A DNA stretch of 64,000 nt from the NCBI RefSeq assembly GCF_056746865.1, contig NZ_CM163382.1, one strand, 5' to 3'. Position 1 is the stretch's first letter; each line of letters starts with the position of its first letter. This document shows, piece after piece, positions 1 through 60,157 of the stretch. Position numbers and translations under genes: made by a program. Below the pieces are notes generated by a model. It saw only the letters and a program-made list of their open reading frames with translations, ran no database searches and was not told the DNA's origin.

Positions 1-474
1 CGCTTCGCTTAATTTTTGTCCGCCATATTCTGAAATTATCCCCACGCAGTTACCCGCCAGAAAACCCAGTAATGTCACCGTCCAGTTCATCCCGCTGGCA
101 AAAAATAGCGTCATGCCGAGAAAGCCTCCGGGAATAAAAGACAATAAACCGAAACGTCCTTGCCAGACCACCACCGCCGAGAAGGGTACAGTCATAATCA
201 CGCTCGCCCAGAACGTGGACAATCCACTCACCGAGGCCAGCCAACCGGCAGCCAGCGCGGCGAAAAACGCCCACACCATCCCAGAATAATTAACCGCCAG
301 GCTTCTGATAAACCCCGATTTACCGCCGCCTGCGGCATAAAAACTGCAAAAGGCGACGAAGCCAATAGTTCCTAATAATTCCCATCCCTGAGAGAGCCCG
401 ACATGTGAAGACACTAACTGCCAAAGCCCTGCACAAATACCGACGGTGACACCCGTTGCCGTGAGTCCGTTCAT
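1..474 (-). CDS. yahC: DUF1097-family inner membrane protein, 3' end outside window
   Basis: Minus-strand frame from ATG (cat at 472-474) translates MNGLTATGVTVGICAGLWQLV..., hydrophobic throughout; translated by eye, not in ORF track because it runs off the window edge. Confidence 0.6.
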   Translation of the reverse strand, partial: MNGLTATGVTVGICAGLWQLVSSHVGLSQGWELLGTIGFVAFCSFYAAGGGKSGFIRSLAVNYSGMVWAFFAALAAGWLASVSGLSTFWASVIMTVPFSAVVVWQGRFGLLSFIPGGFLGMTLFFASGMNWTVTLLGFLAGNCVGIISEYGGQKLSEA

Positions 475-731
475 CTTGTTCCCCTCTGGTTAGACATGGA
501 CGAAAGCTACTCTTACATGTGCAGACTATAGAGAAATAAAACCTGATTGAGTGAAAGGGTATCGGGTCAAAGAAACAAATATTGCACTACCGCACACTGC
601 GAAAAGATTGTTGAACATCATTCAACAAAAAGGCGAAATACGGCGAATTAAATTTAAGCGGGTTCTTTTATCAGATTATCGTTGCTATTCTCAATTCATC
701 GAAAACAGCCACAAAAACCAGGGGAATGTGA

Positions 732-1337
732 ATGACTATAAAAAATCTACCTGCCGACTATTTATTGGCTGCGCAACAGGGTGATATCGATAAAGTAAAA
801 ACATGCCTTGCGCTGGGTGTCGATATTAATACTTGCGATCGTCAGGGGAAAACGGCAATTACGCTGGCAAGTTTATATCAGCAATATGCTTGCGTTCAGG
901 CATTAATTGATGCCGGAGCGGATATTAATAAGCAAGATCAAATATGTTCAAATCCTTTTTTAATTAGCTGCCTGACCGGCGATTTAACCCTGTTACGGAT
1001 TATTTTACCGGCTAAACCTGATCTTAATTGCGTCACCCGTTTTGGCGGTGTCGGCCTGACGCCTGCCTGTGAAAAAGGCCATTTAAGTATTGTAAAAGAG
1101 CTTTTGGCGCATACGGAGATTAACGTTAACCAGACCAACCATGTTGGCTGGACGCCGCTACTGGAAGCAATTGTGCTTAATGATGGCGGGATTAAACAGC
1201 AGGCGATTGTCCAGTTATTGCTGGAACACGGTGCCAGCCCGCACATGACGGATAAATATGGCAAAACGCCGCTGGAACTGGCGCGGGAACGAGGCTTTGA
1301 AGAGATTGCGCAGTTACTGATTGCCGCAGGTGCATAA
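732..1337 (+). CDS. yahD: ankyrin-repeat protein
   Basis: ORF track 201 aa; repeated ankyrin-like motifs (GADIN, GKTAITLA, GWTPLLEA, GKTPLELA). Confidence 0.85.
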   Translation: MTIKNLPADYLLAAQQGDIDKVKTCLALGVDINTCDRQGKTAITLASLYQQYACVQALIDAGADINKQDQICSNPFLISCLTGDLTLLRIILPAKPDLNCVTRFGGVGLTPACEKGHLSIVKELLAHTEINVNQTNHVGWTPLLEAIVLNDGGIKQQAIVQLLLEHGASPHMTDKYGKTPLELARERGFEEIAQLLIAAGA

Positions 1338-1376
1338 ACCGGGAGGCTTGCTATCAACACACCAGAAAGACGGTGT

Positions 1377-2240
1377 GTGTGGGCGCTAACTGCGGATGCT
1401 GATTTTCTAGCGCAGCGGGGGCAAGGACAGGTTGAACAGGTCTTTGCCAGAGCGGTAAATATCGCACTTCCGGCCCGCCAGCAGTTGCTGACGCTGCTTT
1501 GTGAAGAGTACGACAATGCGCCAAACAGTTGTCGGTTGGCACTCACTCACTTTGATGGTCTGTTCCGGCATGGTGATAAGGTTCAGTTTGACGATCAAGG
1601 CATTACGATTGGTCAACATCTTCATATAGAGATGAGTCATTGCCTGCGTTGGCTGTCCCCAACCTTGCAAATGGCCGCTGTGAATTTTCACCTTATCGCC
1701 TGGCAACAGTGGCATGACATTATTCATCAGCACCTGGGGGAAAATGAAACCCTGTTTAATTATCGCGGCGATAATCCGTTTTATCAGGCGTTAAATAAAG
1801 CACTACATATTAAACGTCGGGCAGTTATTCAGGCAGTAAACGATAAACAAAATATCGCCTCAGCAGTCGCCAGTATGATGGGCTTAGGGATTGGCCTTAC
1901 GCCATCAGCCGATGATTATTTAACAGGTCTGGCGCTTATTTTATTTATTTCCGGGCATCCGGCAGAAAAATACAAAGAGGAATTTTATCGCGGTCTGCAA
2001 CGCGGCAGAAATAATACCACGTTATTAAGTGCCATAACGCTGGAAGCCGCATTACAACAACGCTGCCGGGAAAATATTCATCGTTTTATTCATAACATTA
2101 TTTATGACATCCCTGGGAACGCAACTCAGGCAATAGAAAAAATTAAACATATTGGCTCCAGTTCCGGCTGCGACATGCTGTATGGCATGGCCGATGGTTG
2201 TGCGCTGAGCCAAACCTACGGAGGGAATTATGTCAGTTAA
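1377..2240 (+). CDS. yahE: DUF2877-family protein (YlbF-like)
   Basis: ORF track 287 aa; matches recalled YahE length and position; overlaps yahF start by 11 nt. Confidence 0.8.
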   Translation: MWALTADADFLAQRGQGQVEQVFARAVNIALPARQQLLTLLCEEYDNAPNSCRLALTHFDGLFRHGDKVQFDDQGITIGQHLHIEMSHCLRWLSPTLQMAAVNFHLIAWQQWHDIIHQHLGENETLFNYRGDNPFYQALNKALHIKRRAVIQAVNDKQNIASAVASMMGLGIGLTPSADDYLTGLALILFISGHPAEKYKEEFYRGLQRGRNNTTLLSAITLEAALQQRCRENIHRFIHNIIYDIPGNATQAIEKIKHIGSSSGCDMLYGMADGCALSQTYGGNYVS

Positions 2241-3777
2241 AATAGTCATTAAACCGAATACCTATTTTGATTCTGTCTCGCTGATGTCTATCTCCACGCG
2301 TGCAAATAAACTCGACGGCGTCGAGCAGGCATTTGTGGCGATGGCGACCGAAATGAACAAAGGCGTGCTGAAGAATTTAGGACTGCTGACGCCGGAGCTG
2401 GAGCAGGCGAAAAACGGCGACCTGATGATTGTCATCAATGGTAAATCGGGTGTGGACAACGAGCAGTTGCTGGCGGAGATTGAAGAACTGTTCAACACCA
2501 AAGCGCAAAGTGGCTCGCACGAGGCGCGTTACGCCACTATTGCCAGCGCCAAAAAGCATATCCCGGAAAGTAACCTGGCGGTGATTTCGGTCAACGGTCT
2601 GTTTGCCGCTCGCGAAGCGCGTCAGGCGCTGCAAAACGATCTTAACGTGATGCTGTTTTCCGATAACGTCTCAGTTGAAGATGAACTGGCGCTCAAACAG
2701 TTGGCCCACGAAAAAGGGCTGCTGATGATGGGGCCAGACTGCGGTACGGCGATTATCAACGGCGCGGCGCTCTGCTTTGGTAACGCCGTGCGTCGCGGCA
2801 ACATCGGCATTGTTGGCGCATCCGGCACCGGTAGCCAGGAACTGAGCGTCCGTATCCATGAATTTGGCGGCGGCGTTTCGCAACTGATCGGCACCGGCGG
2901 GCGCGACCTGAGCGAGAAAATCGGCGGCCTGATGATGCTCGACGCCATCGGGATGCTGGAAAACGATCCGCAAACTGAAATCATTGTGCTTATCTCCAAA
3001 CCGCCTGCGCCTGCGGTGGCCCGCAAAGTGCTGGAACGCGCGCGCGCCTGCCGCAAGCCAGTGGTGGTTTGCTTCCTCGGTCGTGGCGAAACGCCGGTGG
3101 ATGAGCAGGGGCTACAGTTTGCCCGCGGCAGTAAAGAGGCGGCGCTGAAAGCGGTAATGCTCTCCGGCGTGAAACAGGAACATCTCGACCTGCATACCCT
3201 GAACCAGCCATTGATTGCTGACGTGCGCGCTCGCCTGCAACCGCAACAGAAATACATTCGTGGCCTGTTCTGCGGCGGCACGCTGTGCGACGAAACGATG
3301 TTCGCGGTGATGGAAAAACACGGCGATGTCTACAGCAACATTCAGCCCGATCCGGAATTCCGCCTGCAAGATATCAGCCGCAGCATCAAACACACCTTCC
3401 TCGACTTTGGTGATGACGACTTCACCAACGGCAAGCCGCATCCAATGATTGACCCGACCAACCGCATCAGTCGCTTGATCGAAGAAGCGCGCGATCCAGA
3501 AGTGGCGGTGATCGTGATGGATTTTGTGCTCGGATTTGGATCGCATGAAGATCCGGTCGGCTCCACCATCGAGGCGATCAAAGAAGCGAAAGCGATCGCC
3601 GCTGCCGAAGGACGTGAGTTGATCATTCTCGCCTATGTGCTGGGTACCGATCTTGATACGCCATCATTAGAACAACAAAGCCAGATGCTGCTTGATGCCG
3701 GAGTGATTCTGGCCAGCAGTAGCACCAATACCGGATTGCTGGCGCGTGAATTTATCTGCAAAGGGGAGGAAGCCTGA
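2230..3777 (+). CDS. yahF: FdrA-like acyl-CoA synthetase/CoA-binding family protein
   Basis: ORF track 515 aa; glycine-rich CoA-ligase-like motifs (GIVGASGTGSQE, GTGGRD). Confidence 0.85.
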   Translation: MSVKIVIKPNTYFDSVSLMSISTRANKLDGVEQAFVAMATEMNKGVLKNLGLLTPELEQAKNGDLMIVINGKSGVDNEQLLAEIEELFNTKAQSGSHEARYATIASAKKHIPESNLAVISVNGLFAAREARQALQNDLNVMLFSDNVSVEDELALKQLAHEKGLLMMGPDCGTAIINGAALCFGNAVRRGNIGIVGASGTGSQELSVRIHEFGGGVSQLIGTGGRDLSEKIGGLMMLDAIGMLENDPQTEIIVLISKPPAPAVARKVLERARACRKPVVVCFLGRGETPVDEQGLQFARGSKEAALKAVMLSGVKQEHLDLHTLNQPLIADVRARLQPQQKYIRGLFCGGTLCDETMFAVMEKHGDVYSNIQPDPEFRLQDISRSIKHTFLDFGDDDFTNGKPHPMIDPTNRISRLIEEARDPEVAVIVMDFVLGFGSHEDPVGSTIEAIKEAKAIAAAEGRELIILAYVLGTDLDTPSLEQQSQMLLDAGVILASSSTNTGLLAREFICKGEEA

Positions 3778-5195
3778 TGAGCCAGTCACTGTTTAGCCAA
3801 CCGTTGAACGTTATTAACGTCGGTATCGCCATGTTTAGCGATGATCTGAAAAAACAGCATGTAGAAGTGACCCAACTCGACTGGACGCCGCCGGGGCAGG
3901 GCAATATGCAGGTGGTGCAGGCGCTGGATAACATTGCCGATTCGCCGCTGGCAGACAAAATCGCCGCCGCTAACCAGCAGGCGCTGGAGCGCATTATCCA
4001 GTCGCATCCGGTGCTGATTGGTTTTGATCAGGCGATTAACGTGGTGCCGGGCATGACGCCGAAAACCATTCTTCACGCCGGGCCGCCGATCACCTGGGAA
4101 AAAATGTGCGGCGCGATGAAAGGCGCGGTCACCGGGGCGCTGGTGTTCGAAGGGCTGGCGAAAGATCTCGACGAGGCGGCTGAACTGGCGGCCTCCGGGG
4201 AGATCTCCTTCTCGCCGTGCCACGAACATGACTGCGTGGGATCGATGGCGGGTGTTACCTCGGCCTCGATGTTTATGCACATCGTAAAAAACAAAACCTA
4301 CGGCAACATCGCTTACACCAATATGAGCGAGCAGATGGCGAAGATTTTGCGTATGGGCGCTAACGACCAGAGCGTGATTGACCGCCTCAACTGGATGCGC
4401 GATGTGCAGGGGCCAATGCTGCGCGACGCGATGAAAATTATCGGCGAGATCGATCTGCGCTTAATGCTGGCGCAAGCGCTGCATATGGGCGATGAATGCC
4501 ATAACCGCAATAACGCCGGGACGACGCTGCTGATTCAGGCGCTGACGCCGGGGATTATTCAGGCGGGTTATTCCGTCGAGCAACAGCGCGAAGTGTTTGA
4601 GTTTGTCGCCAGCAGCGACTACTTCTCCGGCCCGACGTGGATGGCGATGTGTAAAGCGGCGATGGATGCGGCGCACGGCATCGAATACAGCACCGTGGTG
4701 ACCACCATGGCGCGTAACGGCGTCGAGTTCGGCCTGCGGGTCAGCGGCCTGCCGGGGCAATGGTTTACCGGTCCGGCGCAGCAGGTCATCGGCCCGATGT
4801 TTGCCGGTTATAAGCCGGAAGATTCGGGGCTGGATATCGGCGACAGCGCCATCACCGAAACCTACGGCATTGGCGGATTTGCTATGGCGACCGCGCCCGC
4901 GATCGTCGCGCTGGTGGGTGGCACGGTGGAAGAGGCTATCGATTTCTCCCGTCAGATGCGTGAAATCACCCTTGGCGAAAACCCCAACGTCACCATTCCG
5001 CTGCTCGGTTTTATGGGCGTGCCATCGGCAATCGACATCACCCGCGTGGGTAGCAGTGGCATTCTGCCGGTGATCAACACCGCCATCGCTCATAAAGATG
5101 CGGGCATCGGCATGATTGGCGCGGGCATTGTGCATCCACCATTCGCCTGCTTCGAGAAAGCCATTCTTGGCTGGTGCGAACGTTACGGCGTTTGA
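3777..5195 (+). CDS. yahG: DUF1116-family protein (YlbE-like)
   Basis: ORF track 472 aa; start overlaps yahF stop (ATGA). Confidence 0.8.
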   Translation: MSQSLFSQPLNVINVGIAMFSDDLKKQHVEVTQLDWTPPGQGNMQVVQALDNIADSPLADKIAAANQQALERIIQSHPVLIGFDQAINVVPGMTPKTILHAGPPITWEKMCGAMKGAVTGALVFEGLAKDLDEAAELAASGEISFSPCHEHDCVGSMAGVTSASMFMHIVKNKTYGNIAYTNMSEQMAKILRMGANDQSVIDRLNWMRDVQGPMLRDAMKIIGEIDLRLMLAQALHMGDECHNRNNAGTTLLIQALTPGIIQAGYSVEQQREVFEFVASSDYFSGPTWMAMCKAAMDAAHGIEYSTVVTTMARNGVEFGLRVSGLPGQWFTGPAQQVIGPMFAGYKPEDSGLDIGDSAITETYGIGGFAMATAPAIVALVGGTVEEAIDFSRQMREITLGENPNVTIPLLGFMGVPSAIDITRVGSSGILPVINTAIAHKDAGIGMIGAGIVHPPFACFEKAILGWCERYGV

Positions 5196-5217
5196 CTCTC
5201 CAACCGCACCTTACGAT

Positions 5218-5242
5218 CCCTTCTCCCTTCAGGGGAGAGGGG
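5218..5242 (+). other. stem-loop (10-bp stem with one G-T pair, 5-nt loop) in yahG-yahI spacer
   Basis: cccttctccc ttcag gggagagggg; no downstream T-tract. Confidence 0.4.
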
Positions 5243-5290
5243 CAACCTCACTCTCATAACCCCATCACCCTCTGTAGCGGACATAACAAC

Positions 5291-6241
5291 ATGAAAGAAC
5301 TTGTGGTCGTTGCCATTGGTGGCAACAGCATTATCAAAGATAACGCCAGCCAGTCGATTGAGCATCAGGCGGAGGCGGTGAAAGCCGTCGCTGATACGGT
5401 GCTGGAAATGCTGGCTTCCGATTACGACATTGTGCTGACCCACGGCAACGGGCCGCAGGTCGGGCTGGATTTACGCCGCGCGGAGATAGCCCACGAGCGC
5501 GAAGGGCTGCCCTTAACGCCGCTGGCGAACTGTGTGGCGGATACGCAAGGCGGCATTGGCTATCTGATCCAACAGGCGCTGAATAACCGACTGGCGCGTC
5601 ACGGTGAGAAAAAAGCCGTCACCGTGGTGACTCAGGTGGAAGTGGATAAAAACGATCCGGGGTTTGCCCATCCCACCAAGCCCATCGGCGCATTCTTTAG
5701 TGAAAGCCAGCGTGACGAATTACAAAAGGCAAACCCTGACTGGCGTTTTGTTGAAGATGCCGGACGGGGCTATCGCCGCGTGGTCGCCTCGCCGGAACCG
5801 AAACGTATTGTCGAAGCACCGGCCATTAAGGCGCTGATCCAACAAGGCTTTGTGGTGATTGGCGCGGGCGGCGGCGGAATCCCGGTGGTGTGCAGTGAAG
5901 CGGGGGATTACCAAAGCGTGGACGCGGTTATCGACAAAGATCTCTCTACCGCGCTATTGGCCCGTGAAATTCACGCTGACATTCTGGTGATCACCACTGG
6001 CGTCGAAAAAGTGTGTATTCACTTTGGCAAACCGCAGCAGCAGGCGCTGGATCGCGTAGATATTGCCACCATGAACCGCTATATGCAGGAAGGGCATTTT
6101 CCGCCTGGCAGCATGTTGCCAAAAATCATCGCCAGCCTGACGTTCCTGGAACAGGGCGGCAAAGAAGTGATTATCACCACGCCGGAATGCCTGCCTGCGG
6201 CGCTGCGCGGTGAAACGGGCACCCATATTATTAAAACGTAA
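5291..6241 (+). CDS. yahI: carbamate kinase-like protein
   Basis: ORF track frame 5174..6241; start moved to ATG 5291 (MKELVVVAIGGNS...) giving 316 aa typical of carbamate kinases. Confidence 0.85.
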   Translation: MKELVVVAIGGNSIIKDNASQSIEHQAEAVKAVADTVLEMLASDYDIVLTHGNGPQVGLDLRRAEIAHEREGLPLTPLANCVADTQGGIGYLIQQALNNRLARHGEKKAVTVVTQVEVDKNDPGFAHPTKPIGAFFSESQRDELQKANPDWRFVEDAGRGYRRVVASPEPKRIVEAPAIKALIQQGFVVIGAGGGGIPVVCSEAGDYQSVDAVIDKDLSTALLAREIHADILVITTGVEKVCIHFGKPQQQALDRVDIATMNRYMQEGHFPPGSMLPKIIASLTFLEQGGKEVIITTPECLPAALRGETGTHIIKT

Positions 6242-6250
6242 GGACGTAAG

Positions 6251-7633
6251 ATGAAAGAAAACAATAGCCGCCGTGAATTTCTGAGCCAGAGCGGTAAGAT
6301 GGTCACCGCCGCCGCGCTGTTTGGTACGTCTGTGCCGCTCGCCCATGCGGCAGTCTCTGGCACAATCCATTGCGACGCGAATAACACCATGAAAATCACT
6401 GACCCGCACTACTATCTCGACAACGTGCTGCTGGAAACCGGTTTTGACTACGAAAACGGTGTGGCGGTACAGACCCGCACGGCGCACCAGACCGTAGAGA
6501 TTCAGAACGGCAAAATTGTTGCCCTGCGCGAGAACAAGCAGCATCCGGACGCCACGCTGCCGCACTATGACGCTGGCGGTAAGCTGATGCTGCCCACCAC
6601 CCGCGACATGCATATTCATCTCGACAAAACCTTTTACGGCGGGCCGTGGCGCTCGCTCAATCGCCCGGCAGGCACCACCATCCAGGACATGATCAAACTC
6701 GAGCAGAAAATGCTGCCGGAGCTGCAACCGTACACTCAGGAACGAGCGGAAAAACTGATCGATTTATTGCAGTCGAAAGGCACTACCATTGCCCGCAGCC
6801 ACTGCAATATCGAACCGGTTTCCGGCCTGAAAAATCTGCAAAATTTGCAGGCGGTGCTGGCGCGACGTCAGGCGGGCTTCGAGTGTGAAATTGTCGCCTT
6901 CCCGCAGCACGGTTTGCTGCTGTCGAAATCGGAACCCTTAATGCGTGAAGCGATGCAGGCGGGGGCGCATTACGTCGGCGGTCTGGATCCGACCAGTGTT
7001 GATGGCGCGATGGAAAAATCCCTCGATACCATGTTCCAGATTGCGCTGGACTACGACAAAGGCGTTGATATTCACCTGCACGAAACCACTCCGGCAGGCG
7101 TGGCAGCCATCAATTATATGGTTGAAACGGTGGAGAAAACGCCGCAACTGAAGGGCAAGCTGACCATCAGCCACGCCTTTGCGCTGGCAACGCTCAATGA
7201 GCAACAGGTAGATGAACTGGCGCACCGGATGGCGGCGCAGCAAATTTCTATCGCCTCGACGGTGCCGATTGGCACGCTGCATATGCCGCTCAAACAGTTG
7301 CACGACAAAGGCGTAAAAGTGATGACCGGCACCGACAGCGTTATCGACCACTGGTCGCCTTACGGCCTGGGCGACATGCTGGAAAAAGCCAATCTGTACG
7401 CGCAGCTCTATATTCGTCCTAACGAACAGAACCTCTCCCGCTCGCTGTTTTTAGCCACTGGCGATGTATTGCCGCTCAACGAAAAAGGCGAGCGCGTGTG
7501 GCCCAAAGCGCAGGATGATGCCAGCTTTGTGCTGGTGGACGCCTCCTGTTCCGCCGAGGCGGTGGCGCGTATCTCGCCGAGAACGGCGACGTTCCATAAA
7601 GGGCAACTGGTGTGGGGGAGTGTGGCAGGTTGA
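6251..7633 (+). CDS. yahJ: amidohydrolase-family deaminase with twin-arginine (Tat) signal peptide
   Basis: ORF track 460 aa; N-terminus SRREFLSQSG...AAALFG...AHA; metal-dependent amidohydrolase-like HxH region (DMHIHLD). Confidence 0.85.
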   Translation: MKENNSRREFLSQSGKMVTAAALFGTSVPLAHAAVSGTIHCDANNTMKITDPHYYLDNVLLETGFDYENGVAVQTRTAHQTVEIQNGKIVALRENKQHPDATLPHYDAGGKLMLPTTRDMHIHLDKTFYGGPWRSLNRPAGTTIQDMIKLEQKMLPELQPYTQERAEKLIDLLQSKGTTIARSHCNIEPVSGLKNLQNLQAVLARRQAGFECEIVAFPQHGLLLSKSEPLMREAMQAGAHYVGGLDPTSVDGAMEKSLDTMFQIALDYDKGVDIHLHETTPAGVAAINYMVETVEKTPQLKGKLTISHAFALATLNEQQVDELAHRMAAQQISIASTVPIGTLHMPLKQLHDKGVKVMTGTDSVIDHWSPYGLGDMLEKANLYAQLYIRPNEQNLSRSLFLATGDVLPLNEKGERVWPKAQDDASFVLVDASCSAEAVARISPRTATFHKGQLVWGSVAG

Positions 7634-7894
7634 TACGCATTTGAAACGCCTGCAATGGTGAATCGTAAGAGATTTAAAGCCCCAGGGAGTGGGGCGGGAA
7701 TGGTTTGTTAATGAATGATCCTGAACTTTATAATCTCCCGGCATAATTTCCAGGGGATTATTTGAGAGAAATACACAAAAGTGAGTTTTAACAATATTTA
7801 TCAAGCCATAAATGTGACCGGCTTCGGATAAAAAAGATTAAACATAGAAAAACCAATGATCCTCTTGCTGATGGTTATCAACAGTAATTAAGAT

Positions 7895-8338
7895 GTGATT
7901 TTTTTCCGTAATCGCGAAAATATTCTCATGACCATAAAAGAAAAAATCTCACAAAAATATCCCCATGCTTCCTTTTGTACTTTTGGCGATTCAGCAGCGT
8001 TGGCCGATCACCTCGCAACGTTGATTGCGACAGGTGTTAAAACAGCTTCCTGTGGTTCGCTGGCGGGATGTATTGAAGACAACGCATTTCCGATGATTGG
8101 TGAGTATAAGATTGTAGAAAATAGCCGTGGTGAGCCTGTCTGTGTTATCAGAGTGATTGGCCTGCATTTACTGCGCTTTTCTGATGTCACCGCGGAGCTT
8201 GCCCGTAAGGAAGGTGAAGGTGACCTCAGTCTTGAATATTGGCGTAATGAACACCGTCGTTTTTTCCAGGCAGAAGGATGCTATTCACCCGAAATGGACG
8301 TTATCTTTGAAGAATATGCCCTTATTGACGTTGTGTAG
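7895..8338 (+). CDS. ASCH-domain (PUA-like fold) protein
   Basis: ORF track 147 aa; GxK motif (ATGVKTASCG); real start may be ATG at 7928; no strong Shine-Dalgarno at either. Confidence 0.55.
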   Translation: MIFFRNRENILMTIKEKISQKYPHASFCTFGDSAALADHLATLIATGVKTASCGSLAGCIEDNAFPMIGEYKIVENSRGEPVCVIRVIGLHLLRFSDVTAELARKEGEGDLSLEYWRNEHRRFFQAEGCYSPEMDVIFEEYALIDVV

Positions 8339-8588
8339 ATAACTATTTTTCTACGCGAAATAAGCTCACAAACATAAAATATCGCTAATTTTGTTTATTT
8401 TGCTATTTTTTACGTGATGAATGTCACACTTATTATTGCTGCCCGTTTTGTCCATATTTATAACCAAATTTTTAATAGCTGCCTGAAATAGGGCTGTTTA
8501 TTCTGCATAAAAATATTCGAAAATTCTTATTCTCTCCAGCGCGCTAATTTGGGCGAACACTTCCTGACTACCCTGCAATGAGGCTGAA

Positions 8589-9575
8589 ATGATGAATAAA
8601 CGTTTTGTTATCAATATGGTGTCTTCGCTGTTATTAGGCGCTGCGCTAATTTCTGCGCCGCTCCAGGCAGCGGAAAAAGTCGTGGTGAATATCTCTAAAG
8701 TCGATGGTATGCCGTGGTTTAATCGCATGGGCGAAGGTGTGGTCGAGGCGGGTAAAGCCTTTGGTGTTAATGCGTCACAGGTGGGGCCTTCAAGTACTGA
8801 TGCTCCGCAACAGGTTAAAATCATTGAGGATTTAATCGCCCGTAAGGTTAATGCAATTACAATTGTGCCAAACGATGCCAACGTGCTGGAACCGGTATTC
8901 AAAAAAGCGCGAGATGCCGGAATTGTGGTTCTGACCAACGAATCCCCCGGTCAGCCAAGTGCTAACTGGGATATCGAAATCATTGATAACGAAAAATTTG
9001 CCGCTGAATATGTTGAACATATGGCGAAACGCATGGGTGGCAAGGGCGGCTATGTGATTTACGTGGGTAGTTTGACCGTGCCGCAGCATAACTTATGGGC
9101 TGACTTGCTGGTGAAATACCAGAAAGAGCATTACCCGGATATGCATGAAGTTACCCGCCGCATGCCGGTTGCCGAGAGTGTGGATGACTCACGTCGTACC
9201 ACACTGGACCTGATGAAAACCTATCCTGACTTGAAAGCGGTTGTCTCCTTTGGTTCAAACGGTCCGATTGGCGCGGGACGTGCAGTGAAAGAGAAACGGG
9301 CGAAAAATAAAGTCGCAGTCTATGGCATGATGATCCCTTCACAGGCGGCATCACTGATTAAAAGTGGTGATATCACCGAAGGGATTACTTACGATCCGGC
9401 CTCTGCAGGTTACGCACTCGCGGCCGTCGCCAGCACGTTGCTGAAGGGTGAAGAGATCAAACCTGGATTAGAAATGCAGAATCTGGGGAAGGCCGACGTA
9501 GATATAGATAAGCGAATTATCCGTTTCCATAAGGTACTGCTGGTCAACAAAGACAATATCGACTCACTTTATTAA
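8589..9575 (+). CDS. periplasmic sugar-binding protein of ABC transporter (PBP type 1, LsrB/RhaS-like)
   Basis: ORF track 328 aa; cleavable signal peptide (MMNKRFVINMVSSLLLGAALISAPLQA); GAGG Shine-Dalgarno upstream. Confidence 0.75.
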   Translation: MMNKRFVINMVSSLLLGAALISAPLQAAEKVVVNISKVDGMPWFNRMGEGVVEAGKAFGVNASQVGPSSTDAPQQVKIIEDLIARKVNAITIVPNDANVLEPVFKKARDAGIVVLTNESPGQPSANWDIEIIDNEKFAAEYVEHMAKRMGGKGGYVIYVGSLTVPQHNLWADLLVKYQKEHYPDMHEVTRRMPVAESVDDSRRTTLDLMKTYPDLKAVVSFGSNGPIGAGRAVKEKRAKNKVAVYGMMIPSQAASLIKSGDITEGITYDPASAGYALAAVASTLLKGEEIKPGLEMQNLGKADVDIDKRIIRFHKVLLVNKDNIDSLY

Positions 9576-9623
9576 TCCATTTCTTCGGGGCGAAAGCCCC
9601 GATTCTTATTGCCAGGGGATGTT

Positions 9624-21160: not shown

Positions 21161-21625
21161 CGACAACCGATGCCTGATGCGCCGCTGACGCGGCTTATCA
21201 GGCCTACGGGATGAACTGAACTGTAGGTCGGATAAGACGCATAGCGTCGCATCCGACAACCGATGCCTGATGCGCCGCTGACGCGGCTTATCAGGCCTAC
21301 GGGGTGAACTGAACTGTAGGTCGGATAAGACGCATAGCGTCGCATCCGACAACCGATGCCTGATGCGCCGCTGACGCGGCTTATCAGGCCTACGGGGCGT
21401 GCTGAACTGTAGGTCGGATAAGACGTATGGCGTCGCATCCGACAACCGATGCCTGATGCGCCGCTGACGCGACTTATCAGGCCTACGGGGTGAACTGAAC
21501 TGTAGGTCGGATAAGACGCATGGCGTCGCATCCGACAACCGATGCCTGATGCGACGCTGACGCGGCTTATCAGGCCTGCGGGGTGAACTGAACTGTAGGT
21601 CGGATAAGACGCATAGCGTCGCATC
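21161..21625. repeat. tandem array of five 93-bp units built from inverted REP palindromes (BIME-type)
   Basis: cgacaaccgatgcc recurs at 21161, 21254, 21347, 21440, 21533; spurious ORFs 20960..21790 and 21085..21624 show a 31-aa periodic peptide. Confidence 0.9.
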
Positions 21626-21671
21626 CGACAACAATCTCGACCCTACAAATGATAACAATGACGAGGACAAT

Positions 21672-26252: not shown

Positions 26253-26278
26253 GGTATTGTCGGATGCGTCGTGTGGCG

Positions 26279-26994
26279 CATCCGACACCGTGCGCCGATG
26301 CCTGATGCGACGCTGACGCGTCTTATCATGCCTACAGGCCTGAACCGTAGGTCGGATAAGGCGCTCGCGCCGCATCCGACACCGTGCGCCGATGCCTGAT
26401 GCGACGCTGGCGCGTCTTATCATGCCTACAGGTCTGAACCGTAGGTCGGATAAGGCGCTCGCGCCGCATCCGACACCGTGCGCAGATGCCTGATACGACG
26501 CTGGCGCGTCTTATCATGCCTACAGGCCTGAACCGTAGGTCGGATAAGGCGCTCGCGCCGCATCCGACACCGTGCGCCGATGCCTGATGCGACGCTGGTG
26601 CGTCTTATCATGCCTACAGGCCTGAACCGTAGGTCGGATAAGGCGCTCGCGCCGCATCCGACACCGTGCGCAGATGCCTGATGCGACGCTGGTGCGTCTT
26701 ATCATGCCTACAGGCCTGAACCGTAGGTCGGATAAGGCGCTCGCGCCGCATCCGACACCGTGCGCAGATGCCTGATACGACGCTGGCGCGTCTTATCATG
26801 CCTACAGGCCTGAACCGTAGGTCGGATAAGGCGCTCGCGCCGCATCCGACACCGTGCGCAGATGCCTGATGCGACGCTGGTGCGTCTTATCATGCCTACA
26901 GGTCTGAACCGTAGGTCGGATAAGGCGCTCGCGTCGCATCCGACACCCCGCGCCGATGCCTGATGCGACGCTGACGCGTCTTATCAGGCCTACC
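26279..26994. repeat. tandem array of about 7.5 units of a 94-bp REP-pair repeat (BIME-type)
   Basis: catccgacacc recurs every 94 bp from 26279 to 26937; five identical-frame 61-aa spurious ORFs at 94-bp spacing in ORF track. Confidence 0.9.
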
Positions 26995-57964: not shown

Positions 57965-58598
57965 GTGAACGTCTGAGCATTACCCCGCTGGGGCCGTATA
58001 TTGGCGCACAAATTACGGGTGCCGACCTGACGCGCCCGTTAAGTGATAACCAGTTTGAACAGCTTTACCATGCGGTACTGCGTCATCAGGTGGTGTTTCT
58101 GCGTGAACAGGCCATTACGCCGCAGCAGCAACGCGCGCTGGCCCAGCGTTTTGGCGAGCTGCATATTCATCCTGTTTACCCTCATGCCGAAGGGGTTGAC
58201 GAGATTATCGTACTGGATACTCATAACGATAATCCGCCAGATAACGACAACTGGCATACCGATGTGACATTTATTGAAACGCCTCCTGCTGGGGCGATTC
58301 TGGCGGCGAAAGAGTTACCCTCGACTGGCGGCGATACGCTATGGACCAGCGGTATTGCGGCGTATGAGGCACTCTCTGTTCCCTTCCGCCAGCTGTTGAG
58401 CGGGCTGCGTGCGGAGCATGATTTCCGTAAATCGTTCCCAGAATACAAATACCGCAAAACGGAGGAGGAGCATCAACGCTGGCGCGAGGCGGTCGCGAAA
58501 AATCCGCCGTTACTACATCCGGTGGTGCGAACGCATCCGGTGAGCGGTAAACAGGCGCTGTTTGTGAATGAAGGCTTTACTACGCGATGGATTTGCCC

Positions 58599-59504
58599 CT
58601 ATATTTCCAGACACCTGTTATCACTTAACCCATTACTGGCCCGCTGCCGTAGATATTCCCGTGGCGAGCGATAACCCAGTGCACTATGCGGATGCCATTC
58701 GTTATAATGCTCGAACGCCTCTGCAAGGTTCTTTGCTGCCGTTAACCCGTCTGGTTTAGGCATGATACTGATGTAGTCACGCTTTATCGTTTTCACGAAG
58801 CTCTCTGCTATGCCGTTACTCTCCGGACTCCGCACCGCCGTGTTCTTCGGTTCAAGCCCCAACATCCGGGCAAACTGCCGTGTTTCATTAGCCCGGTAGC
58901 ATGAACCATTATCCGTCAGCCACTCTACTGGAGACGCCGGAAGCTCGTTGCCGAAGCGGCGTTCCACCGCTCCCAGCATTACGTCCTGTACTGTTTCACT
59001 GTCGAAGCCGCCCGTAGTGACTGCCCAGTGCAGTGCCTCACGGTCACAGCAGTCCAGCGCGAACGTGACTCGCAGTTTTTCTCCGTTATCACAGCGGAAC
59101 TCGAACCCGTCAGAGCACCATCGTTGATTGCTTTCTTTCACGGCCACTTTGCCAGTATGTGCCCGTTTCGATGGCGGTACAGCGGTTTTTCGCTCAAGCA
59201 ACAGCGCATTCTGGCGCATGATCCGGTAAACACGTTTGGCATTGATCGCAGGCATACCATCAAGTTCGGCCTGTCTGCGAAGCAGCGCCCATACCCGACG
59301 ATAACCATACGTGGGCAGCTCTCCGATAACATGGTGTATACGGAGAAGCACATCCGTATCATCTGAGTGACGGCTGCGGCGACCATCTTTCCAGTCATCG
59401 GTTCGTCTGAGAATGACGTGCAACTGCGCACGCGACACCCGGAGACAACGGCTGACTAAGCTTACTCCCCATCCCCGGGCAATAAGGGCGCGTGCGCTAT
59501 CCAC
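58599..59504 (-). CDS. insD: IS2 transposase OrfB (InsD)
   Basis: ORF track 301 aa identical to 14757..15662. Confidence 0.95.
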
Positions 59505-59872
59505 TTTTTTGCACGCCCGTATTCAACGGCTTCTTTAAGGAGTTCATTTTCCATCGTTTTTTTGCCGAGCAGGCGCTGGAGTTCTTTAATCTGCTTCATG
59601 GCAGCAGCAAGTTCAGAGGCAGGAACGACCTGCTCTCCTGCGGCCACAGCAGTAAGACTTCCCTCCTGGTATTGCTTGCGCCAGAGAAATAACTGGCTGG
59701 CTGCCACACCGTGTTGCCGGGCAACAAGGGAGACCGTCATTCCCGGTTCAAAACTCTGCTGAACAATAGCGATCTTTTCCTGTGTAGTACGCCGTCTGCG
59801 TTTCTCCGGTCCTAAGACATCAATCATCTGCTCTCCAATGACTAGTCTAAAAACTAGTATTAAGACTATCAC
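59462..59872 (-). CDS. insC: IS2 transposase OrfA (InsC)
   Basis: ORF track 136 aa identical to 14389..14799. Confidence 0.95.
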
Positions 59873-60157
59873 TTATTTAAGTGATATTGGTTGTCTGGAG
59901 ATTCAGGGGGCCAGTCTACGCGAATTGTTGATGTCAGCGAGAAAGAGAGCGAAGCCTTGTTAAGTTTTTTGTTTGCCCATATCACCAAACCGGAGTTTCA
60001 GGTGCGCTGGCGCTGGCAACCAAATGATATTGCGATTTGGGATAACCGCGTGACTCAGCACTATGCCAATGCGGATTACCTGCCACAGCGGCGGATAATG
60101 CATCGGGCGACAATCCTTGGGGATAAACCGTTTTATCGGGCGGGGTAAGGGGGAAAT

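Follow-up and report, generated by a model that had tools for sequence, protein, structure and literature searches.

The yahDEFGIJ cluster of Escherichia coli, a distinct relative of the AllFGH-AllK genes with a predicted role in ureide catabolism

Introduction

The closest described relatives of the genes considered here lie in the allantoin region of Escherichia coli and encode AllF (FdrA), AllG (YlbE), AllH (YlbF) and the carbamate kinase AllK (YbcF). Purified AllF-AllG-AllH has oxamic transcarbamylase (OXTCase) activity, assayed in the synthetic direction with carbamoyl phosphate and oxamate; the allF, allG and allFGH deletion mutants of K-12 make zero oxamate from allantoin, an allH deletion mutant makes about 7% of the wild-type amount, and an allFGH deletion strain makes 16% when given allGH alone and 7% when given allFG alone (PMC11326118). 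YbcF/AllK was shown in 2022 to be a catabolic carbamate kinase (PMC9843812), and FdrA is without succinyl-CoA synthetase activity (PMC8550087). Here we describe a related cluster, yahD-yahE-yahF-yahG-yahI-yahJ, at positions 732–7633 of a 64,000-nucleotide stretch of E. coli DNA (contig NZ_CM163382.1; "the window" below, in whose coordinates positions are given).

The original prediction, made from this DNA alone, held that the yah genes look like a paralogue of the allantoin-region module and are not known to have an experimentally assigned function. The first statement is borne out by the comparisons given below, and full-text literature searches turned up nothing against the second: a 2024 survey of the y-ome still counts yahC, yahE, yahG, yahH, yahI and yahJ as uncharacterised (PMC11551758), and the yah genes are unmentioned in both the AllFGH paper (PMC11326118) and the AllK paper (PMC9843812). 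Its further remark that FdrA-YlbE-YlbF is only a proposed oxamate carbamoyltransferase named the right activity but was dated, since that activity was shown in 2024 with purified protein and deletion mutants (PMC11326118). Its suggestion that yah may be a second catabolic module yielding carbamoyl phosphate agrees with all the observations made here.

On balance we favour the reading that yahDEFG-yahI constitute a separate lineage of AllFGH-AllK, in which a multi-subunit "ureide phosphorylase" and a carbamate kinase would be fed by a periplasmic deaminase. The cluster would probably harvest ATP and ammonia from a ureide other than that used by AllFGH. It represents a separate variant within an enzyme system that was defined only recently, not a new kind of system.

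Gene organization

The first 10 kb of the window are 100% identical to the chromosome of E. coli strain 118UI, in whose RefSeq annotation yahC on the minus strand is followed by yahD, yahE, "fdrA" (that is, yahF), yahG, yahI and yahJ on the plus strand, with identical coordinates. The six genes are intact, and open reading frame (ORF) coordinates and this annotation agree with the original prediction that they are co-directional, with overlaps of 11 bp (yahE and yahF) and 1 bp (yahF and yahG); the remaining junctions are gaps of 39 bp (yahD-yahE), 95 bp (yahG-yahI) and 9 bp (yahI-yahJ). Profile searches of Pfam and NCBIfam upheld the protein family claimed for each of the six genes:

732..1337, plus strand: yahD, cytoplasmic ankyrin-repeat protein of 201 residues (ankyrin matches)
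1377..2240, plus strand: yahE, AllH/DUF2877-like subunit (Pfam PF11392, 1.6e-28)
2230..3777, plus strand: yahF, AllF/FdrA-like (NCBIfam "acyl-CoA synthetase FdrA", 491 bits, cut-off 433; Pfam CoA_binding and Ligase_CoA)
3777..5195, plus strand: yahG, AllG/DUF1116-like (Pfam PF06545, 9.3e-89)
5291..6241, plus strand: yahI, carbamate kinase family (PRK12352, 646 bits, cut-off 266)
6251..7633, plus strand: yahJ, AtzC/CodA-type aminohydrolase with a twin-arginine translocation (Tat) signal (PRK06846, 716 bits, cut-off 447; signal residues 1–33 at 6251–6349)

The start of yahI is the one annotated in RefSeq, its ORF opening earlier, with a GTG at 5174.

Similarity to the AllFGH and AllK proteins

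In pairwise BLASTP comparisons with the K-12 proteins all four pairs were significantly similar: YahF with AllF (38% identity, 3e-102), YahG with AllG (46%, 6e-120), YahE with AllH (25% over 273 residues, 4e-11) and YahI with AllK (38%, 2e-57). The paralogy was already implicit in annotation, where Pfam uses the names AllG and AllH and NCBI the name "FdrA" for yahF, and is therefore not new. YahI, which is 46% identical to YqeA, reaches 347 bits on the arcC equivalog TIGR00746, just below its cut-off of 358; it is a member of the carbamate kinase family but not a curated arcC equivalog.

Both sets are tightly packed and co-directional and combine FdrA-type, DUF1116/AllG and DUF2877/AllH proteins with a carbamate kinase, at 25–46% identity. 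They differ in gene order, which is H-F-G-K in yah and F-G-H-K in all. Unlike all, yah includes a conserved ankyrin protein and an AtzC/CodA-type aminohydrolase with a Tat export signal, and outside Escherichia it also has a permease of its own; it is without allantoin genes nearby, and its regulator is of the LysR type (YahB), versus AllS, AllR and ArcA for all.

About 55 N-terminal residues of YahG correspond to the C-terminal tail of AllF, residues 12–53 of YahG matching the last 42 residues of AllF (5e-8), and the NCBIfam FdrA profile also matches the YahG N-terminus. Many family members recovered in the representative search are single FdrA-DUF1116 fusions of about 1000 residues, in which the segment "VINVGL...W.P" is the linker. 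The yah and all systems are split on opposite sides of this F-G linker, the F/G boundary of yah being displaced by about 45 residues relative to that of all. Because such fusions exist, and because the linker segment swaps owner between AllF and YahG, we would argue on Rosetta-stone grounds that F and G act as one enzyme or complex.

YahF is related to the fold of the alpha subunit of succinyl-CoA synthetase (SCS), which aligns with its residues 101–315 only; its match to PDB entry 3dmy, "Protein fdrA", has an E value of 1e-82. The GHAG phosphohistidine motif, characteristic of SCS, was seen in neither YahF nor AllF in the alignment. This absence and the partial extent of the SCS alignment agree with the report that FdrA has no SCS activity (PMC8550087). 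A motif G-K/R-x-H-P-M-I-D-P, which includes His404 of YahF, is conserved in AllF and the fusion proteins and is a candidate catalytic site.

The CoA_binding and Ligase_CoA domains of YahF might instead suggest another chemistry, in which YahEFG would work on the deamination product as a ligase or lyase dependent on acyl phosphate or CoA, or would be a biosynthetic enzyme transferring carbamoyl phosphate made by YahI to an acceptor. The OXTCase assay itself was run in the synthetic direction, and the fold of YahE has no solved relative, which leaves room for a different role of this subunit. Such a chemistry seems improbable to us in view of the lack of SCS activity in FdrA (PMC8550087), the missing GHAG motif of YahF and AllF, and the catabolic-type carbamate kinase, importers and hydrolases that repeatedly accompany the genes in different phyla and point to catabolism.

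Phylogenetic position and conservation

In a library of 1.84 billion representatives clustered at 50% identity, a single full-length representative was more than 50% identical to YahG (76%), all others being at 49% or below. YahG is 86–99% identical across Enterobacterales, 88% in Aeromonas and 79% in Janthinobacterium, and is still 73–77% in Brevibacillus, Paenibacillus, Neobacillus, Trichococcus and a solved, unannotated structure, 3clq (2e-195). AllG is not in the same clade, at 46% identity versus 73–97% between YahG and its own orthologues across phyla. The yah cluster is a distinct lineage with its own tight YahG clade and not a recent duplicate. YahE is poorly conserved (46–65% identity already within Enterobacterales), and its gene is missing from about 25 otherwise complete loci of Enterobacter, Leclercia, Lelliottia, Silvania and Huaxiibacter, in which yahD abuts yahF (for example locus L042, 7736–8454).

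The same comparisons bear on the possibility that yah is a second OXTCase which, under YahB, splits oxalurate for the use of exogenous oxalurate, parabanate or related compounds. In favour of it, YahG and YahF are 46% and 38% identical to AllG and AllF, the same three subunits accompany a carbamate kinase, and 3clq, a yah-type DUF1116 protein, is presumably from Enterococcus. Papers of the 1960s, cited in PMC3364942, described oxamate transcarbamylase activity in Enterococcus and its induction by parabanic acid, and the partial oxamate yields obtained with allGH only (16%) or allFG only (7%) could mean weak substitution by Yah subunits. Against it, E. coli has both modules, an identity gap (76% versus 49% or less) sets the yah-type clade apart, and this clade has accessory genes of its own (ankyrin protein, deaminase, dedicated permease) and never stands beside allC, allD or allE in the loci read. 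Furthermore the allF, allG and allFGH deletion mutants of K-12 make no oxamate though yahEFG is present (PMC11326118), so that chromosomal yah does not substitute for allFGH under those conditions, an outcome which a silent operon in K-12 would also explain. We consider a second OXTCase unlikely; the substrate of yah is most likely not allantoin-derived oxalurate.

Compared with E. albertii, Citrobacter amalonaticus and Kluyvera, dN/dS is 0.02–0.12 for five genes (0.04–0.12 for yahD) and 0.20–0.27 for yahE. All six genes are under purifying selection, and because dN/dS is low they are real genes and not chance ORFs.

Conserved neighbours

For the Enterobacterales comparison, 100,044 species genomes were scanned and 80 loci obtained, which were probed only with yah-cluster reference proteins; the partners detected in it were the ankyrin protein, YahJ, a permease which we call Perm517, and YahB. 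The commonest layout is yahB (LysR, minus strand) followed by yahD, yahE, yahF, yahG, the Perm517 gene, yahI and yahJ. In every Enterobacterales locus for which the upstream side was covered, an ankyrin gene precedes the AllH/F/G-like genes, and the protein also accompanies the module in Aeromonas, Janthinobacterium, Brevibacillus, Trichococcus and Neobacillus; it occurs in every phylum sampled, the single exception being the locus which encodes the 3clq protein. YahD, in whose N-terminus no signal peptide was read, is an additional, conserved part of yah-type modules.

A regulator of the LysR or PucR type accompanies the module. The one in Brevibacillus is of the PucR type, and the carrier there is an NCS1 protein nearest to allantoin permeases. 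None of allB, allC, allE or allD was found beside yah in the window or in the Pfam-annotated yah-type loci (L003–L005 and L086–L088).

Several Firmicute neighbours may be recorded here. Trichococcus has, after the yah-type genes, a protein of 422 residues made up of three RidA (enamine/imine deaminase) domains (L087, 12971–14239) and a single-domain RidA gene upstream, and another RidA gene lies upstream in Brevibacillus; these neighbours hint that a reactive enamine or imine might be formed in the pathway. A membrane protein of about 393 residues, matched by no Pfam or NCBIfam model, is encoded both in the 3clq-encoding locus (L086, 11198–12379) and in Trichococcus (L087, 11485–12669), with 68% mutual identity. 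The unannotated genes of about this length in Firmicute loci were ruled out as one family, the Neobacillus product being a long ankyrin protein and those of L086 and L087 membrane proteins.

The YahJ aminohydrolase

The nearest solved structures to YahJ are of the AtzC family (3.8e-44), followed by CodA, and YahJ keeps the CodA catalytic set as H121, H123, Q219, H275, E278, H308 and D362, which we take to align with CodA H61/H63, Q156, H214, E217, H246 and D313. Since it scores below every cytosine-deaminase equivalog cut-off YahJ is not a CodA orthologue, and it is predicted to be a mononuclear-metal aminohydrolase of the AtzC/CodA type. With AtzC (N-isopropylammelide isopropylaminohydrolase) and CodA (cytosine/isoguanine/creatinine deaminase) it has in common the fold, the HxH motif, the His, the Asp, the Glu of HxxE and the substrate-binding Gln, but there is a Ser at the position of CodA Asp314.

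AtzC and CodA are cytoplasmic; YahJ of Proteobacteria, unlike them, bears a Tat signal. This N-terminal twin-arginine signal, MKENNSRREFLSQSGKMVTAAALFGTSVPLAHA, has the motif SRREFLS...LAHA-A, and RR-x-F-L is kept in all 74 of the 74 proteobacterial YahJ orthologues. YahJ is among the listed Tat substrates of E. coli, and a yahJ deletion strain competed slightly but significantly less well in mice (competitive index 0.70, p 0.022; PMC7549933). YahJ should act in the periplasm, and in view of the conserved signal it could supply a substrate to the module, as the original prediction had proposed, only from there.

In Gram-positive Trichococcus there are two tandem YahJ-family enzymes with no signal, and in Brevibacillus and Neobacillus a CDA-fold deaminase of 150 residues takes the YahJ slot. 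As two non-homologous deaminase folds fill the same position in the cluster, we would argue that a cytosine-, guanine- or ammelide-like compound is deaminated to feed the module. The YahJ step would be accessory, because complete modules without any deaminase exist.

Related cassettes

The arginine deiminase, agmatine deiminase and YgeW-YqeA pathways follow the same logic as yah and all, a carbamoyl group being passed to phosphate and carbamate kinase then yielding ATP, NH3 and CO2. Their transferases, however, are single-gene trimers with the aspartate/ornithine transcarbamylase (ATCase/OTCase) fold, whereas those of yah and all are unrelated and of three to four subunits (PMC11326118).

A third AllFGH-like module of E. 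coli lies in the tkt1 island of APEC O1 and in GR29 of BEN2908, in extraintestinal and avian pathogenic strains (ExPEC/APEC), with the order isochorismatase-E-F-G-carbamate kinase-NCS1 (PMC3349570, PMC12928451), and in nitrifier genomes allFGHK adjoins biuH/trtA, which encode biuret and triuret hydrolases (PMC12625717). These modules, and a similar metagenomic locus (L093), resemble yah in joining AllH/F/G-like proteins and a carbamate kinase to a hydrolase and a nucleobase-type permease, and the ExPEC/APEC-type DUF1116 protein is about 46% identical to YahG. They differ from it in that the feeder is an isochorismatase-family hydrolase (BiuH/RutB-like), the carrier is NCS1 and no ankyrin protein is reported.

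Among the nearest non-yah subfamilies, one has a carbamate kinase, uracil phosphoribosyltransferase (UPRTase) and two Perm517 paralogues alongside a BiuH-like isochorismatase, and another adjoins a hydantoinase/dihydropyrimidinase. A metagenomic contig (L092, 6614–10428) carries a ring-opening amidohydrolase of the AtzD/TrzD (cyanuric-acid-hydrolase/barbiturase) family (350 bits) directly upstream of AllF- and AllG-like genes, and no AllH-like gene was called on it. These nearest non-yah subfamilies thus adjoin enzymes which open or trim N-heterocycles to ureides, and the cassette looks like a general device leading from acyl-ureide by way of carbamoyl phosphate to ATP, with interchangeable feeders and carriers.

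Transport

Perm517, a polytopic membrane protein of 512–526 residues, is encoded between yahG and yahI in most genera and recurs in Janthinobacterium, Aeromonas and Neobacillus (a 517-residue permease gene at L005, 11540–13093). Sequence searches gave no match to it in NCBIfam, in PDB or in Pfam, the last even at E <= 10. A structural model (pLDDT 61) found SVCT1, UraA, BicA or SLC26 proteins as all of its top Foldseek matches (E about 1e-5, TM 0.45–0.6). The 7+7 NCS2/SLC23-SLC26 fold, an inverted repeat of fourteen helices, has short strands in TM3 and TM10; in the model, strands occur at residues 84–85 and 304–305. We would assign Perm517, with low confidence, to the 7+7 NCS2/SLC26-type transporters.

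Escherichia, Kluyvera, Klebsiella, Raoultella, Pseudocitrobacter and C. amalonaticus have a variant without Perm517, in which a short spacer separates yahG from yahI and yahC (DUF1097) lies between yahB and yahD. In the window the two elements are:

1..474, minus strand: yahC, DUF1097 inner-membrane protein, divergent from yahD; its 3' end is lost at the window edge
5196..5290, no strand: yahG-yahI spacer, 95 bp

In K-12 the spacer is 421 bp of repetitive extragenic palindromic (REP) DNA annotated as "yahH", a doubtful gene (L095, 8745–9165; PMC11551758). The anticorrelation of yahC and Perm517 is perfect, YahC being found in 17 loci without Perm517 and in none of about 60 loci with it, and probably goes back to just one event within one lineage of the cluster. 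YahC is annotated as DUF1097 in 118UI, and its translation is hydrophobic. DUF1097 proteins are predicted nucleoside- or pyrimidine-related transporters, and the paralogue YcdZ is predicted, but not shown, to be a transporter of the nucleoside regulon (PMC3454398). K-12 and most other chromosomal copies in E. coli are without a dedicated permease, and this may explain silent phenotype screens.

One might ask whether the chromosomal cluster of Escherichia is a decaying remnant whose function went with the permease gene. REP DNA of variable length (95 bp here, 421 bp in K-12) stands in place of that gene, no phenotype has been reported in K-12, and a premature stop in a DUF1116 gene arose in laboratory culture with no obvious cost (PMC6306219). 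Yet none of the six ORFs is broken, dN/dS is 0.03–0.05 (0.20 for yahE) between the permease-less species E. coli and E. albertii, the Tat signal and the operator-like blocks upstream of yahD are conserved, and the yahJ deletion carries the competitive defect in mice mentioned above (competitive index 0.70, p 0.022; PMC7549933). We find decay very hard to credit.

A plasmid-borne copy

A complete module flanked by insertion sequences (IS) lies on the E. coli plasmid pMTY1886_IncF (L089, 3107–11540), with the layout LysR, then ankyrin-DUF2877-FdrA-DUF1116-Perm517-carbamate kinase, and no yahJ. Its YahF, YahG and YahI are 83–93% identical to the chromosomal proteins. A module of this type, at least 99.8% identical, occurs in 141 of 5426 complete E. 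coli genomes, and 106 of its 151 copies are on large plasmids, mostly of 130–260 kb. Among evenly sampled records of the module about 33 of 60 came from chickens or other birds, a count not normalised to the collection, so that an avian bias is only a lead.

Upstream region and regulation

581..693, plus strand: region upstream of yahD, conserved blocks, candidate regulatory

The conserved blocks in this region are GCAC-N5-GCAC (581–596), a dyad of the T-N11-A type, ATTGTTGAA-N5-TTCAACAA (607–629), and the block GTTGCTATTCTCA (681–693). They vary little or not at all when nine genera, ranging from E. coli to Aeromonas, are aligned together with the IncF plasmid copy. The dyad is a plausible candidate operator for the LysR regulator YahB, which would probably control expression through it. 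A generic scan for sigma-70 promoters and terminators in positions 1–8600 gave no more sites than shuffled sequence, and no GG-N10-GC match to a sigma-54 promoter was seen by eye upstream of yahD.

Proposed pathway

From the observed paralogy, family memberships, export signal and gene linkage we infer the catalytic steps as follows. YahJ would fold with its metal in the cytoplasm, be exported by Tat and, in the periplasm, strip by hydrolysis an exocyclic amino or alkylamino group from an amino-oxo N-heterocycle (cytosine-, ammelide- or creatinine-like). The oxo product would be imported by Perm517 in most genera, and in Escherichia by YahC or an unlinked carrier. YahF-YahG, with YahE and YahD as accessory components, would then split an N-carbamoyl (acyl-ureide) bond with phosphate to give carbamoyl phosphate and an amide, a chemistry transferred by homology because AllFGH acts in this way on oxalurate. 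Finally YahI would convert carbamoyl phosphate and ADP to ATP, CO2 and NH3.

Several points weigh against this scheme. There is no ring-opening enzyme in the cluster, yet a deaminase of the CodA/AtzC type should leave a cyclic ureide; the ring may open spontaneously, by an unlinked enzyme or by the complex itself. Some complete modules (Aeromonas allosaccharophila, Janthinobacterium and the IncF plasmid copy) have no YahJ. YahE is missing in about 25 species of the Enterobacter group, though AllH is needed for full OXTCase activity. The Perm517 model is of low confidence (pLDDT 61), and comparison by hhalign with GhxQ, XanQ, UacT and an NCS1 carrier reached an E value of 0.03 at best, a weak link to NCS2. 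Lastly, yah may fail to stand in for allFGH in K-12 only because it is not expressed.

A bolder version of the scheme, which we offer only tentatively, would make YahD-E-F-G a four-component phosphorylase acting on a non-oxalurate acyl-ureide derived from an amino-triazine, pyrimidine or imidazolone, and perhaps opening the ring itself. The periplasmic deaminase would act ahead of it. Uptake would have been rewired from Perm517 to YahC in Escherichia, and the abundance of urate-derived ureides in birds would explain a spread of the complete version on plasmids of avian E. coli. The acyl-ureide might come from ammelide/cyanurate, from 5-azacytosine or from products of creatinine or oxidised purines (parabanate, methyl-oxalurate, triuret, carboxybiuret).

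Other features of the window

Between yahJ and yahK, at 7928–13025, lie an ASCH-domain gene and a four-gene sugar/AI-2-type ABC transporter. K-12 has none of these genes, its yahJ and yahK being separated by 376 bp, and the 80 loci of other genera yielded no ASCH homologue. The segment is an island that varies between strains and probably has nothing to do with yah; as an uptake system for the cluster it was ruled out by its absence from K-12 and from all other genera examined.

Two identical IS2-family copies in inverted orientation (approximately 14343–15673 and 58588–59918), 96% identical to K-12 IS2H, enclose a segment of about 43 kb in which prp, codBA, cyn, lac, mhp, frm and tau lie. Both are absent from 118UI, which is otherwise 99.97–100% identical to the window. 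Tandem arrays resembling REP/BIME elements, each 96% self-identical, lie between prpB and prpC (21161–21632, 93 bp x 5.1) and between prpE and codB (26277–26993, 94 bp x 7.6). The LysE-family exporter gene yahN is annotated in 118UI as a pseudogene with an internal stop (L001, 23894–24565, corresponding to the region of about 15894–17900 in the window).

Significance

The genes yahC, yahE, yahG, yahI and yahJ still belong to the y-ome of the best-studied bacterium, and none of the seven yah genes has an assigned catalytic function. AllFGH, their sole characterised relative, defined a new class of transcarbamylase in 2024. If yah is a second member of this class with another substrate, the class would be a general, oxygen-independent route from ureides to ATP and ammonia, and the cluster may be relevant to gut, urinary-tract and poultry niches and to the fate of triazine, biuret and creatinine-type compounds. 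Should the bolder and more doubtful version of the scheme be true, enterobacteria and bacilli would gain an oxygen-independent, ATP-yielding route for N-heterocycles.

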